DNA of 63,936 nt, the filler included, from Porpidia crustulata (lineage: Eukaryota), in assembly GCA_964255105.1 (NCBI GenBank). It is 3 parts of 3 records of this genome, joined end to end, with 100 filler letters (N's around TTAATTAATTAA, not from the genome) between each part and the next. Parts side by side here need not be neighbours in the genome. Positions count along the whole stretch, not along the records: positions 47,617 to 63,936 come from CAXUWE010000261.1; 2 more parts are not named here. One strand, given 5' to 3'. The notes beneath the pieces are model-generated. The model saw only the letters and a list, made by a program, of their open reading frames with translations, made no database searches and was not told the DNA's origin. This document shows positions 8,251 to 63,000 of this stretch, piece by piece. Positions within the stretch are counted from its first letter, which is position 1. Every line of letters starts with the position of its first letter. The position numbers were made by a program, and so were the translations under genes.

Positions 8251-8505
8251 AATGTCCGTGATCAATTGTTAATTCTGCGAGATGTTCAAAGGTATCGCGT
8301 CGCGCATTTGAAAAGAAAGTTTCATTTCCACCCCTCATCGGTCTACTGCACCTAAGGTTAGGGCTGTACACCCTTGAAACCCTAACCCTAGATGTAATGG
8401 TCCGATGAGGGGTGGAAACGAGTAGATTGACTCAGCCCTATTGGTACACAATATATCGTTTACGTCGTACATTGACCTATATTAAAGGAAAATCGAGTTG
8501 TAAAA
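8251..8505. promoter_or_regulatory. Bidirectional promoter RFC5/COX11 with an MCB-like doublet and inverted telo-boxes
   Basis: TCGCGTCGCG at 8295-8304, CTAAGGTTAGGG at 8352-8363 and AAACCCTAACCCTAG at 8377-8391. Confidence 0.55.
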
Positions 8506-14460: not shown

Positions 14461-15031
14461 GCTGGTTACCAAGTTGTTTGATAAACGTTCCCAGAAAGGG
14501 TCAGGATGGTGTTGATGAAGGAATTGAAGGGGGTTGTATTGCGTAATAAGGCGTGTATATATTTAGATGACTATGTTGCTCACTGATGAGGACTGGGTTC
14601 CTTCTTGCCTCGTTATAAATACAGAGACTTCCACAATAATATATTATGATGATCATGAGTACCTTAGGCTGGGATCACGCATGCTTGTCGCGGACATCAG
14701 CCCTACATGCATCATAACCAAATAAAGTAATAAGCCCTCCAACGGGCAGGCAATCCCGGCACCAGGGGGTGTCAGAAGTTATTGGACCACTTAAGGATCA
14801 CTTGATCGAGGCCAATGACTTTAAGACTTGCTGGTCTCCTAGTGCTAGCAGTGTTGTTGACGGCAACGGGTAATTACATATTAGCCCTAACCCTAGACAG
14901 GTCTTTCTCAAGCATTAGGTGACTTTACGCGATTAGAGCTTTCGAACAAAGAATACGTAATTATAAAGCACATCATGCCATTGCCACGAAGTTGACGTCT
15001 AAATCCTTGAACAAAAGCTCTGAAATTTGTA

Positions 15032-23714: not shown

Positions 23715-23814
23715 NNNNNNNNNNNNNNNNNNNNNNNNNNNNNNNNNNNNNNNNNNNNTTAATTAATTAANNNNNNNNNNNNNNNNNNNNNNNNNNNNNN
23801 NNNNNNNNNNNNNN
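23715..23814. other. Assembly gap / artificial linker (N44-TTAATTAATTAA-N44)
   Basis: Exactly 100 bp. The central 12-mer places stop codons in all six frames. Confidence 0.97.
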
Positions 23815-47516: not shown

Positions 47517-47616
47517 NNNNNNNNNNNNNNNNNNNNNNNNNNNNNNNNNNNNNNNNNNNNTTAATTAATTAANNNNNNNNNNNNNNNNNNNNNNNNNNNN
47601 NNNNNNNNNNNNNNNN
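47517..47616. other. Assembly gap / artificial linker (N44-TTAATTAATTAA-N44)
   Basis: Identical in layout to 23715-23814. Confidence 0.97.
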
Positions 47617-56742: not shown

Positions 56743-59700
56743 CCAGGCAATCCAGCAACGTTCAATTAAGGAAGACAACCCCAAATTCATCGCCAATCAG
56801 TTGATTCCTTTCCAAACCACTGCTGTAAAAGATGGACCACAAAGGGATGCAAATTAAACAGCGCTGATGTGCTCATAAATAATCCTCTTGCAATGATGAC
56901 CGGACCGGTGTATGCTGGTCCTACAGATACTGCTGAGTCGCATCTCAATCTCACGGTCTTTCTCTAGAAGCTCTGCTCGCCACGCGTTTCTGAAGTTCTT
57001 CGGAGCAAGATGTAACCGGGTTATGGCAGCGCTTCGAAATTATTGACTATGAAGATGGTGGTGTTGACAATGATGCAGTTAAAGGCAAGTCTGAGCTGTT
57101 TTGACGGACTGAATGTTGACGCATTGATGGGACGACGGCGAACTTATTCGGAGAGAAAACTGATGGGATTTTGGGGTGAATTATGGCTAGGGTCAGGCAC
57201 ATCATGATGGAGCGAAATTACCTGCGGACAGCTATCCGAGGATCAATCGGTCACTTTGACTTCCCAGACAGTTGGAGAGGGAAGATGTCAAGGATCTGGA
57301 GAAACCACGTCGAGCAAATTACAGGAATAGCAATCGATGACGTGCAATAGGAATCTCTCTGATATTTCAAATCGCGGGATGTTACAATATATGGTCTTTG
57401 ATGCAGGATACAAAAAATGTTTAAGGCCATCGTCTGATATTCTTCGAAGAAAGTGAGCAGCATAGCGATAGCTTTCGAGGCTTGCTGTATCGATGCTGGG
57501 TAACAGAAGAACCTGACTTGACACTGCGCGAAACGTCACCGAAAGAATTAATTTGTGTCGCTTTAAGACAATCGCACTAACGATTTTTTTGACCTCTTCA
57601 CCGCTTATTGATTACAATGGAGGAATACTTGATTTGGATGCGCCGTATCACAACCTTGAGAGATCTCAACCTCCATACCAAAGATCTGGGAAATAGTTCG
57701 AGGGCTCATTTGGTGCTTCTTGCGTACGGCCGTACAAACCGTCTGTTTCAAGGTTATTCATTAACTCGATTTGTTCCTCCTGACTCAATCGGCGGGTAGA
57801 CTGATCGGGCACATAAGGCAACTGGAAGTATTGCAGATACTGATCGCCGATGACACCCAAATTATGTTCTGGACTCTGTTGTACTGGCGCTGTCCAAAGC
57901 TGCAGATCAGGTAAATTCCATGAAAAATGATTGTGCGTCTCGTTTAGGCCAAATGGCGTGGTGGAGAGAGAGGGCCACGTAGTATCGCTTCGACCAACGT
58001 CGGAGATGCCCGAGCGAGGGAGAATATGTTCTAACAATGACAAAGAATTGTTTACATTTCCTAATGGCATGTGGTTAGCCTGAAGCATGACGCTGGTAGG
58101 TATCGAGCGATCGCTATCATGGTCAGATGAAGTAGAAACTGCAATAATCGAATTACTGGAGGGCTGAGGATATGTGGAGAAGGTCTCGGGGTCCTCATGC
58201 AACGACTGATTTGAAGACGATCTAACCAAACGGAACGAATCAGTCTCAGAGTCGTAGATTTTGAGACAGGCTGCTCCCAGATGGCCGTAGAGTGCCAGGG
58301 CTGATTTGACACCAGGCCAGCGCTCTGCAGCCAAATAAATGCCTTCATGTGAAGTTCGTAATAACGTCTGTAGCTCCTCCTTTGAATGCTCCTTCTGCAC
58401 TTGTGCATAGAAAATGCTCCACAGTATGATATTGAGCGCCGCAAACAAAGACTGGGTAAAAATCCATGTAAGGTCAACTGATTTGGTCGCGATCTGCTGT
58501 CTATGCATCCGAATGTTGAAGCTGGCGGCATAGAAGCAGATTTGTGCTGAAGATACTGATGGTTCTGGAATTTGAGGGGATGGCCGATATTACAGAATTG
58601 TCATGATGTTATATCTCCCTTGAGCCCTGTGGAAAATTTTCAGAACTGTGTATGGTGTAGGCAAAGAATACCGCTCTGAAATAATTATTTCATACGATAA
58701 CGAAAATAGTCCTATTACTCGTACTGTTCTCTCACCTGACATATTTGGATGAAGTGGACTTACCACAGCTTAGTGAGGCCGCTCCCTACATCATCTTCAG
58801 GAACTCCCGAAAACCAATCCCTCAATTTCTGCTGCATCGCCACAAACCACGGGTCGTGATCATTATTCGGTTCTGGTCGCTTCTTCAAGTAAAGCTTGCG
58901 CCTCATCTCTGCTTGAAGCAGTCTCATTTTCATGAAAAGCATAGAAAAAAGCTTTTTATTTGAAGATGGACAGTCTCTCAATATACCAGATGAGCTGATG
59001 AAGCAGTCATCTACAAGTTCGAAGAACTTTACGTTTATATGATCGCAGCTTGTGCCGAAAGCACTTGGTCTACCAAGGCTGTGCGCAAGTCCCAGCTCCA
59101 TAGACGTGATAATCCAAAACAGACGTCGACGCAGGTCCATTTCGAGCGTATTGAACGGCGGCCGTCTAGAGACAATTCCAATGGTGGCCTCTTCTGTGAC
59201 TCCTATTTCCTGGCATAGCCTACTGGCTAATCCAATGACATAGTACGAAGCTGTTCGGGTTGGAGAGACCAAAGAGTATTGAGCAATCAGCGCGAAGCAC
59301 TGCAAAGTATTGAGGTTTAGAGGTTTTATGGTAAGCGAAAGATAGGGCAAAGCCGCGAGATAGTAACTGTCCGCTAGACTAGCGAACTTAGTATCGAGCT
59401 TCTGCATACTGATAGCTAAGACTATTCGCAGGGCAAAATTTTTATGAGCTTCCGTAGACCCATTGTAGACGTCTTCAACGTCGTTCTGGAAAGTAGGCTC
59501 GTGGAGCGTCGGAAGCAGGTACTGTGCTATTAAGCATCAGCCATGAGCTTGAAGCAACCCAGCGCGGGTGCCTAACCAGTATTATTGAAGATACCAATGA
59601 GCTTCTCCGTCAATTCGCGGGTGAGGAGATCGGGAGCGGCAACATTACTGATCAAGGGATAGACCTTTGACGTAGGCTTAGAGCTCTCCTTCGTAAAGTA

Positions 59701-59951
59701 GTCCTTGATCTGCTGAGCTTTCATGTCTGGTACTATTTCCTTGATACATTTACTTAGGGTAGTTTGCTTTGCCAACTCCATAACCAGACGGGTCAAGGCA
59801 ATTCCTCTCGAAGGTCCTTTCACAAGGGCCATAGCGGGGAAGCCGAGGATCACATTTGCTCTTCCGCTAAGACTTGTAAGCGGACAACCAATACGAGGTC
59901 AAGCCAGGGAAGGCCATTACCTTCCTACATCTTGTGCAAGCGCTCAATGTA

Positions 59952-60063
59952 CTCGTTCCCACCCCCAAACGGTCCGCCCTACCTAGGGTTAGGGCTACAA
60001 CATAGGGTTAGGGTTATATTGACTAATCTTAACTAGCGCGGACCGTTTGGGGGTGGGAACGAG
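59952..60063. mobile_element. 112-bp non-autonomous MITE (Tc1/mariner-type TA duplication) with a telomere-repeat core
   Basis: Perfect 26-bp TIRs CTCGTTCCCACCCCCAAACGGTCCGC (59952-59977) and its reverse complement (60038-60063). TA on both sides (59950-51 and 60064-65). Removing the element plus one TA restores the host reading frame. Confidence 0.9.
59984..60016 (+). repeat. Interstitial telomeric repeats (TAGGGTTAGGG twice) inside the MITE
   Basis: TAGGGTTAGGG at 59984-59994 and TAGGGTTAGGGTTA at 60003-60016. TTAGGG is the usual Pezizomycotina telomere repeat. Confidence 0.85.
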
Positions 60064-61006
60064 TATGGGCCGATCGCGAGTCTACGTCATTTGGACTTTC
60101 GCGATGGGATTCGTCTCCCTCCAATATTTTGTTTGTAGGCTTCAATGGGCTCGAAAGACTGGACGAGGTCTGGGAAGCCTCCATGACCAGATAACCCACA
60201 GGGTATGTCGCGTGACTCAGGAGCGTTCAGAGCATGTGCGTGGACGCTTCATCCTCCACGAGTCTCGTCTATAATCGACGATCATCGTTAGGGTAGGACC
60301 TACCTCTACAACGATTAGGAAGGAACAAATATTCATGTTGTCGAGGATGCCTGTAAGACTTAGAGGCTCGGTTGGAACTTGTAGTGCATAAGGTAGCATG
60401 ACGAGGGGAGACCCTTGCACGCCTTGTCAAAACGCCTCCATATGTCCTGTGGCGACGATGACAACTTCTGTTTACTATTACATTTCATTCAAGCTGTGAA
60501 TGACCTTTATAATTTGGACAATTCATGGGTTATAAACGCGCCGCTCATCTCTTCCTCACTTCGAGCAAGCACATAGTATCAATGCATACGGTGGACTGAG
60601 GCATGGAATATCTAGCGAGCTAAATATCATGTAGAAATCCCAGTTAGATATTCTGACAATAATCCGGCTGGAAAAAGGTGGTCTTTATCTATTATTATCA
60701 TTGCAGTTTACCTACTTCAATTCCCTGGCTCCTTCCTCTCGAACATCCCAGCCCACACATACTAGTCTTTGGCTTGAATATGAGTGTAGCGATTCCTTGC
60801 TTACTGAGCCCTCCTTCCATTGCTGTTCAATTTCTGCCGCTAGGTGCGGACTTATTTAATTGGGGTACATGATCCACATAGCGTCATATCACATGGTCCA
60901 AAAGAACAAGATGTCTCGTTGCCCAAAAAAGATTAGATTTCAACTTACGTTGTTTGTGTAACAAATCCTTCATTCGATTGTTTGGCCCCCTCCTAGTCTC
61001 TCGATT

Positions 61007-63000
61007 ATGTCTACTGAAAGTAGACTCAAGACCCCATTATTGCGAGTCAGTCGGTCGATTTCTGTGAGTACACAGTATCCTGGACCGGCGAATCCTGGGA
61101 ATTCTTAGTGACTCTGTGTCTTTATTAGGCATGTACAAGATGTCGGATGTCAAAGATAAAGTGTGACGGCAAATTGCCTGCCTGTTCAGCCTGTGAAAAA
61201 TCTGGTAGGACTCGGCAATGCTCGAACGCGAACGACGAGTTTGTTAAAGGAAAGGAACGAAGTTATATTGCCTCCCTGGAAGCCCGGCGCGGGAAGCTAG
61301 AAGAGCAAGTTTCTCGAGCAAAGGCCAGAAGAGCCTCTGATCCTGTGCTCGCTATTTTGCCAACTAAGGCTACGATGTCTTCGACCAGCCGGGTTTTCGA
61401 TCATAGTCGTAAAATCCAAACAAAGGAAGCTTCAGATATAGATGATCTAGTATCCGATTTTGGTTTCCTGCAAGTGTTTGGCCTGAGTAAACCATTATCT
61501 AATCTTTAATAATTCAAAATCTAGGTCGGTCAATGCTACAGCAAGAGATTTCTGGGGATTCAAAGACGTTTAATTTGCCCGCCTAGTCCTCCAATCGGCA
61601 ACTCGCGCTGAACTGCCTAAATTTAACACTGTTGTGCTACCTCCTAGACATGCAACTACTGCTTTGATTCAACATTACCTCGAAGATATCTTTGTTTTAT
61701 ACCCTTTCCTAGACGAACTTAGGCTATTTGGATCGTTAGATGCAGTCTACCACGATGGGGGTCGCTATGCCACTCCAATGGATCACTGGACATTGAGACT
61801 AACTCTTGCAATTGCACATGCACCACTCTCTTACCAGCACGGCGATACGCAATACCAGGACGCTGTACAACTTGCCGCGTCGGCGCTTCAGCAGGCGGAA
61901 ATAGTAATCCAGCCCGGCTCTTTGCAAGGAATCCAGGCAATCCTCCTCCTTGCCCAATACGCAATGTTGGATCCTCGTCACTTCAGCGATTGGTACCTGA
62001 TAGGGGCAGCATCTCGTGCCATGTTAGATCTTGGGCTGCATCAAGATCCCCAATTCATCACGCGGCCCCGAGATCCAAGTCTTGTTCTACAAAGGCGCAT
62101 ATATCACGCTATTTACACTCTTGACAGGTCCGCTTCATTTTATTCCCTGGCCAATATTTACTTGGCTGACGACCACATAGGTCCGTAGCTATAGTAAATC
62201 TCAGAGCTTTCTCGTTCACGGATGACTCTGCAAATGTTGGGCCTTTGAGCGGCCAGCAGTCTTTATCTCCTATCCAGTCGAGCGCTGAGCAGCGGCTTTT
62301 CCTACACACGATTATTCCAGCTACACATCTTATAGAACTTCGGCAACTACAGTCGCGCTCGTATCAGAAACTTTACAAGTCTAGTCTTCAAAGTCTAAAA
62401 GAGCCCTGGCCAGCTATATTCGCATCATTGATAAAAGTGCATATTTGGGCTTCAAATCTACCCGACACAATGAGAGAGTCAGCCACGAGACTCATGCGCT
62501 CAGACATGCTCTACAGTAACATTGTACTCCTTTCACCAACGGGCACAAACTTTCTCCAATCCGAATATGTTACGGCACTGATCTTCAAATACGCCACTGG
62601 CTACGCAGACTGTGTATCTTGGGCGGAAGAGAGCTGGACCAAGTTCACGTTTTGGACATATCACGACTTCCGGCGCACCACTTACGTATTCCATAGATTT
62701 ATGGATATCCTAGAAGCGAGTTCCATTTCACTCTTTAGTGGTGTTACGCCAAACGCTCCTTCGGGTTATGAAATGTCCTATGCACTGCCGAGTCTTAGTG
62801 TGCGTAGTCCAGAGGACATGTGGAAAAGGGCAAAGAGCTGTCTTGATTCTCTGAGAGTTAGGGTGGAGTACTTTAGGCTTAGGTTTGGAAACCTGGACTT
62901 ATGGGAATTATGCAGAGCAAGATATAATCAGATATCGCAGAAATTGCAGGCTGATGAGATAAATTGGAGCAGCTACTCTCATGGTGCTGCAGACGCCTAA
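61007..63000 (+). pseudogene. Zn2Cys6 / fungal_trans-domain transcription factor with a premature stop (probable young pseudogene)
   Basis: MSTESRLKTPLLRVSR..ACTRCRMSKIKCDGKLPACSACEKSGRTRQC..GKERSY. After the GC-AG intron 61470-61524 the frame reads SVNATARDFWGFKDV*FARLVL (TAA 61571-61573) and continues into DLGLHQDP..RRIYHAIYTLDR..RAFSFTDDS. Confidence 0.75.

Follow-up and report, generated by a model that had tools for sequence, protein, structure and literature searches.

A 112-bp sequence with perfect inverted ends, hereafter E1, interrupts a Zn2Cys6 transcription-factor sequence in a 63,936-nucleotide stretch of Porpidia crustulata DNA (the window). We put at about three in four the probability that E1 is a MITE from a TA-targeting family of a few dozen copies, mobilised in trans and carrying an inherited telomere-like box. 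E1 would then be a non-autonomous cut-and-paste DNA transposon, moved by a DDE/D transposase that targets TA and has its gene at another genomic locus, and the TA duplication suggests that this transposase would be of the Tc1/mariner–pogo type. According to this model, the element went into the codons for His and Thr that shortly precede the zinc cluster in a Zn2Cys6 regulator gene, bringing an in-frame stop with it, and its telomere-like box would have come with the family rather than having been acquired at the E1 locus.

Anatomy and target-site duplication of E1

With its flanking TA dinucleotides, E1 spans positions 59950–60065. The left TA (59950–59951) and the right TA (60064–60065) were placed by reading the sequence and by excision models, and contigs of other copies of the element diverge just before the one (four contigs) and just after the other (four). 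Inside them lie the 26-bp terminal inverted repeats, the left at 59952–59977 (plus strand), with an exact match on both strands, and the right at 60038–60063 (minus strand), an exact reverse complement of the left, so that the termini are complementary at 26/26 positions. The 26-mer has two exact matches in the window, one per strand, against 0.00 expected from 100 shuffles, and a repeat search extends the arms imperfectly to 43 nt (88%). Sequence, repeat search and folding together delimit a 60-bp non-coding core at 59978–60037. This core contains a 19-nt tandem repeat (59981–59997 versus 60000–60016, 88%), at the unit centres of which sit two telomere-like blocks, each TAGGGTTAGGG. Block 1 (59984–59994, plus strand) starts 7 nt inside the terminus, counted from CTAGGG; block 2, in the second unit (60003–60013, plus strand), lies in direct orientation 8 nt away. 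The window holds four exact matches to TAGGGTTAGGG, compared with 0.01 expected. The right arm has only a decayed telomere-like box (7/14), and the element has no coding capacity, with stops in the frames read. The original prediction had described these coordinates, perfect 26-bp termini and a 60-bp core with two TAGGGTTAGGG blocks, all of which are present in the sequence.

Folded as single-stranded DNA, the 116 nt reach −41.7 kcal/mol (z = −9.08), a stability that none of 200 shuffles equals. A transcript of E1 would form a long, near-perfect hairpin, a likeness to the MITE-derived hairpin microRNA precursors catalogued in Rfam. An Rfam search of 59945–60067 returned only sub-threshold hairpin microRNA matches at 36–40 bits: MIR6445 (40.4 bits against a gathering threshold of 100), MIR6440 (36.5 against 95) and mir-4433 (39.6 against 77). 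We rejected membership of these families because the scores lie far under the curated thresholds and reflect a match of shape alone; what E1 shares with such precursors is a hairpin shape, not a family.

We then scripted five excision models, removing 114, 112, 116 or 118 bp or leaving the sequence unchanged. In only one of the five, the removal of 114 bp (the element with one of its TAs), can the frame be read without a stop from the ATG at 60184 into the zinc cluster. It also recreates the motif A-H-T-L-S-A-C, which aligns with A-H-T-L-T-A-C in all six full-length orthologues compared (P0021, P0030, P0038, P0040, P0053 and P0054). Models with a 3-bp or a TG duplication were rejected, as stops result. 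The 3-nt flanks of E1 are unlike each other (GTA versus TAT), and the duplication is therefore 2 bp. Given that the 114-bp removal restores both the frame and the A-H-T-L-(S/T)-A-C motif, E1 is a genuine insertion that duplicated its TA target, and the same model puts that TA in the codons for His and Thr, with the first zinc-ligand cysteine three codons further on. Both the 114-bp excision figure and the TA duplication of the original prediction are thus correct, as is its description of a MITE-type insertion flanked by TA and interrupting conserved coding sequence at this point.

E1 has the features by which MITEs are recognised, namely inverted termini, a reconstructable empty site, a small non-coding size and many copies sharing its ends. 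A 2-bp TA duplication marks the Tc1/mariner–pogo superfamily, and E1 has the TA dinucleotide duplication of its Stowaway-like MITEs. No transposase domain was found in any of the 91 window ORFs of at least 110 aa at E ≤ 1e-5; with no autonomous element or transposase in the window, the superfamily assignment is drawn from the TA duplication and the terminal repeats alone. The lack of a transposase among these 91 ORFs, together with a terminal sequence that matched no named autonomous element, would leave room for a MITE of another superfamily (PIF/Harbinger, hAT or CMC), for example one in which the TA belongs to the terminus and the duplication is different or absent. We regard this as highly unlikely, however: restoring the frame needs exactly one TA to be left behind, with removals of 112, 116 and 118 bp all giving stops; the differing 3-nt flanks leave no 3-bp duplication; and a TA at both ends is common to the other copies detected in the sequencing run described below.

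The interrupted Zn2Cys6 gene

The sequence that hosts E1 is a Zn2Cys6/Fungal_trans transcription-factor pseudogene at 57666–60184 on the minus strand (PF04082, E = 6.7e-19). An ATG at 60184–60182 opens a minus-strand frame that runs into E1 and stops inside it. We aligned the P0030 orthologue to 57001–61000 and compared the result with other orthologue sequences, which revealed three lesions besides E1. First, TAT (Tyr) replaces the fourth zinc-ligand Cys at 59831–59833 (minus strand), giving LPRYGPC here versus LPRCGPC in the orthologues. Second, about 68 codons (P0030 residues 65–132) are deleted with a frameshift; at the junction (59813–59819, minus strand) the matched stretches abut in different frames, and the lost segment includes the sixth Cys, the linker and the coiled-coil region. 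When the lost 68 codons were sought in the rest of the window, the single match was weak (E = 0.029, 30% identity) and was rejected. Third, in the P0030 alignment an in-frame TAA replaces a Leu at 58590–58592 (minus strand) within the strongly conserved G-R-Y-N...Y-R-P-S-P-Q block. An 18-codon alignment gap with the ends GTAATG...TTAG points to a 54-nt GT...AG intron in the zinc-cluster coding region (59867–59920, minus strand), and a second probable intron, at about 58627–58763, keeps its GT...AG ends. What remains of the Fungal_trans domain is 66–73% identical to the orthologues.

A functional Zn2Cys6 protein has six zinc-ligand cysteines in an open frame, which the host gene lacks; with three lesions in addition to E1 (Cys to Tyr, deletion plus frameshift, and TAA), it is a pseudogene. 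The original prediction had placed the insertion in a coding exon. This holds for the ancestry of the sequence but not for a hit on a live gene, as three further disabling lesions are present, and the pseudogene context corrects the impression of a live regulator that was recently knocked out. As judged from one genome, E1 may have struck first or may have been added late. The perfect termini would argue for youth, but 52 nt are too short a clock to be sure.

A second Zn2Cys6/Fungal_trans gene, apparently intact, lies at 61129–63000 on the plus strand, head-to-head with the pseudogene and about 950 bp from its start codon, so that the two form a divergent pair of paralogous-type regulators. 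The best named protein matches come from lichen-forming Lecanoromycetes (Mycoblastus, Letharia, Lasallia, Xylographa and Teloschistaceae) at 58–69% identity, and for a sugar transporter in the window, relatives reach 85–89%. Judging from the named matches at 58–69% identity, the host is probably a Lecanoromycete-like ascomycete.

Other copies and the telomere-like box

To place E1 among its relatives, we used one public sequencing run, X1, in the form of contigs (Logan). X1 holds 0.90 of the sampled words of 59700–60400 and may be the same sample from which the window was assembled, so it is not fully independent. Aligning its contigs to 59400–60700 at a likeness of at least 80% yielded 74 matches, 38 of which fit both arms. 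Depth was 12.4 in the left flank and 9.29 in the right, compared with 294 and 461 in two bins wholly inside E1, that is, 24–50 times the depth of the flanks. Among the matches listed, loose ends leading into unrelated flanks lay at 59948–59950 (1 + 2 + 4 contigs) and at 60065–60068 (4 + 2). As these loose ends begin at the TA-flanked tips, other copies resemble this one through to the flanking TA, and outside it their sequences are different. Six records (2–7) are such copies, aligned across both telomere-like blocks with 0–1 gaps. Three contigs leave the alignment after the first block and enter sequence resembling that which follows the second, indicating that one-block copies also exist. 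Variants present in at least 10% of the X1 copies aligned to E1 fall at 59980, 59995–59998, 60000–60001, 60031 and 60033; none at this frequency lies inside either telomere-like block or the termini. From the summed contig depths, and allowing for contigs that fit both arms, we infer some 20–35 E1-like copies, a figure that is not a count. Only two full copies, E1 and the diverged E2 described below, were read directly, the others being deduced from summed depths and loose ends in X1. Depths and loose ends together point to a few dozen family members whose boundaries are the same. The original prediction had made its case depend on there being other copies and on their sharing the core; in X1, the element is multicopy, with copies ending at the same tips, and records 2–7 carry both blocks.

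The window consists of short contigs joined end to end, and no Logan contig spans the whole element, which would be consistent with an assembly artefact, a hairpin or chimeric join at this locus. Specifically, no X1 contig bridges 59979–60010 from unique flank, so it is the window assembly that supplies the exact core sequence of this copy. Against an artefact, both junctions occur in the X1 contig build, albeit one that may be the window's own source: record 1 (5,845 nt) matches the left flank and the element as far as 59978 without any difference, and record 8 (3,794 nt) matches from 60011 on and through to the right flank with a single difference, so that the joins between flank and element are both supported. 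No empty-site joint was reported among the X1 contigs at the locus. Taken together, these observations make an artefact barely credible. Runs X2 and X3, from other organisms in the same study, gave 0 matching contigs, which is not evidence either way. Metagenome scans with both tip boxes separated by a 60–90-nt gap, or with one arm plus the telomere-like box, each returned 0 matches.

Within the window, a blastn-short search and an nhmmer profile found two further sites besides E1. The first, E2 (8319–8424), to which a search with the telomere-like 11-mer had also led, is an older, diverged family copy with one telomere-like block per arm, in inverted orientation with 16 nt between them, and a TA on the right only. 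Its arms of 42 nt are 83% complementary; the right tip is still the family tip, with TA outside it, and the left has decayed, with four changes in the last six positions. On its two sides E2 has an ORF with an RFC-subunit domain (minus strand) and one with a Cox11 domain (plus strand), and thus sits in a divergent intergenic region, less than 300 bp upstream of a start codon. The second site is a solo 15-mer at 14882–14896 (minus strand), identical to 59983–59997 of E1 and with no terminal repeats around it. By our own arithmetic about 1e-4 such matches are expected by chance, and the solo 15-mer may be a copy relic or an independent host site. At 23715–23814 and 47517–47616, N-runs (about 44 N) stand on either side of a 12-nt all-frame stop linker, with a middle part of 23,702 nt. 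These linkers join the parts of the window, so neighbourhood across them is not real, and E1 and E2 are on different contigs.

Comparing the left arm of E1 with the right arm of E2 revealed alternating conserved and scrambled segments. The 14-nt tip box agrees at 13/14 positions and the next 4-nt spacer at 1/4; CGG and CC are kept; a 7-nt spacer agrees at 1/7; and the box CTAGGGTTAGGG plus two flanking bases agrees at 13/14. In three arms (E1 left, E2 left and E2 right), the telomere-like box is offset from the terminus by the same 7 nt. The family end is thus bipartite: besides the 14-nt tip box it has a telomere-like box, CTAGGGTTAGGG, whose start lies 7 nt inward of a 24–26-nt terminus.

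This arrangement bears on the origin of the box. The telomere repeat of this fungus, as in filamentous ascomycetes generally, is taken here to be TTAGGG, and the blocks in E1 match about two units of this canonical repeat exactly. Telomeric repeats are also reported at sites of double-strand-break repair in vertebrates (PMC8537989). The core could accordingly be telomerase-made or repair filler captured at this one copy, an alternative raised in the original prediction. A telomerase-added interstitial repeat should be private to one locus, however, whereas this block recurs in E2 and in other copies. It stands at the same 7-nt offset on both arms of the diverged E2, and the blocks are present in the other X1 copies (records 2–7), where no variant within them reaches 10%. 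Because the same block occupies the same offset in E2, it is an inherited family module rather than filler captured at E1, and we consider the filler explanation no longer tenable beyond a very slight chance.

Both the tip box and the telomere-like box are conserved between the two diverged subfamilies, represented by E1 and E2, and the spacers are randomised. Conserved boxes between randomised spacers are what is expected of cis-sequences needed for mobilisation, and our preferred reading is that the telomere-like box is a predicted subterminal protein-binding site used in transposition. The conservation among young copies is weak evidence of constraint. As for what might bind there, a helix-turn-helix domain of the transposase is a putative candidate to which we give nearly even odds, because the 7-nt offset is fixed in three arms. 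The right arm of E1 has no good box (7/14) and yet its subfamily has amplified, which indicates that the box is not needed on both arms; being dispensable on one arm weakens its reading as a transposase site. A somewhat less likely binder would be a Myb protein of the host that recognises TTAGGG (Tbf1/Teb1/Tay1 type) and serves as a cofactor. Its candidacy comes from the exact telomere sequence, from the retention of two blocks per element despite differing orientation and spacing between the subfamilies, from the solo 15-mer, and from the reported binding of Tbf1 to clustered TTAGGG in Saccharomyces cerevisiae and to a TTAGGG-N6-CCCTAA palindrome in Candida albicans (PMC2834713). That the box is a neutral passenger seems unlikely.

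A different emphasis would make the family mainly a carrier of host regulatory sites, its TTAGGG pairs being kept for predicted Tbf1/Teb1-type Myb binding and not for transposition. Both subfamilies keep two blocks, direct and 8 nt apart in E1 and inverted and 16 nt apart in E2; the solo 15-mer lies outside any terminal repeats; E2 is situated between two ORFs pointing away from each other; and clustered or palindromic TTAGGG pairs are what Tbf1 is described as binding in yeasts (PMC2834713). The paired sites of this family resemble the Tbf1/Teb1-type promoter sites of that report in being clustered or, as in E2, arranged as a TTAGGG...CCCTAA palindrome, and differ from them in spacing, with 8 nt (direct) or 16 nt (palindromic) here versus N6 in C. 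albicans (PMC2834713). The fixed 7-nt offset in three arms speaks instead for a positional role in the transposon end, and we judge it somewhat unlikely that carrying regulatory sites is the main role. A bolder reading, in which paired telomere-repeat sites are the cargo of a MITE and a host Myb protein of the Tbf1/Teb1/Tay1 type would serve as a transposition cofactor or chromatin shield, is an unlikely but conceivable description of the family.

Relation to known elements

The mimp elements of Fusarium are reportedly TA-duplicating MITEs of filamentous ascomycetes. TA duplications also define the commonest class of fungal MITE families, including 8 of 13 families in Zymoseptoria tritici (PMC4522978). 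Given that MITEs are routine in fungal genomes and that TA families are the commonest, E1 as such is ordinary. It resembles the TA-duplicating ascomycete MITEs (those of Z. tritici and mimp) in being short (<200 bp), non-coding and multicopy, with inverted termini, a TA duplication and a location in gene-rich DNA. It differs from them in having a conserved telomere-like box at a fixed subterminal offset and a terminal sequence without a match in print.

The closest structural parallel lies in ciliates. The TBE elements of Oxytricha belong to Tc1/mariner, and the telomeric repeat of their host is found in every one of their terminal inverted repeats (PMC4724952). The likeness consists in a host-type telomere repeat that is built into the inverted ends and conserved across subfamilies. 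TBEs carry the repeat at the very tip and are described as autonomous, with three ORFs, an ANT duplication and a ciliate host (PMC4724952). In E1, by contrast, the repeat starts about 32 nt inside the end of a 112-bp element with a TA duplication and a fungal host. To our knowledge, a telomere-repeat box at a fixed position across subfamilies has so far been documented among Tc1/mariner-type elements only in these ciliate elements.

Searching published full texts for the terminal repeat strings returned unrelated bacterial primers only, and no fungal MITE with a telomere-repeat core was found in the literature covered, the main articles of mostly non-subscription journals. The suggestion of a possibly undescribed family is provisionally borne out, with neither the terminal repeat nor a comparable core appearing in the literature searched, and we provisionally regard E1 and E2 as members of a new family of a well-known kind of element. 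Its conserved subterminal telomere-like box is an unusual and well-supported structural feature with a putative function. Small DNA transposons of lichen-type fungi are barely characterised. An in-depth survey of a lichen fungus counts four MITE families and leaves their structure undescribed (PMC8773270).

Against this background, E1 provides a clean case, open to dating, of a MITE that interrupts conserved coding sequence in a lichen-type fungus. Whichever binder the box may have, and even if it is a passenger, each copy brings two canonical telomere-repeat sites into gene-rich DNA. Should the box recruit a Myb protein with which the host binds telomere repeats, the family would spread such sites naturally and would offer a handle on the host factors that assist eukaryotic cut-and-paste transposition. 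If, moreover, the paired sites are its cargo, amplification would seed Myb-binding sites in the promoters and genes of a lichen fungus, and the telomere-bearing elements of ciliates would have a miniature equivalent in fungi, one by which Tbf1-type regulons may be rewired.
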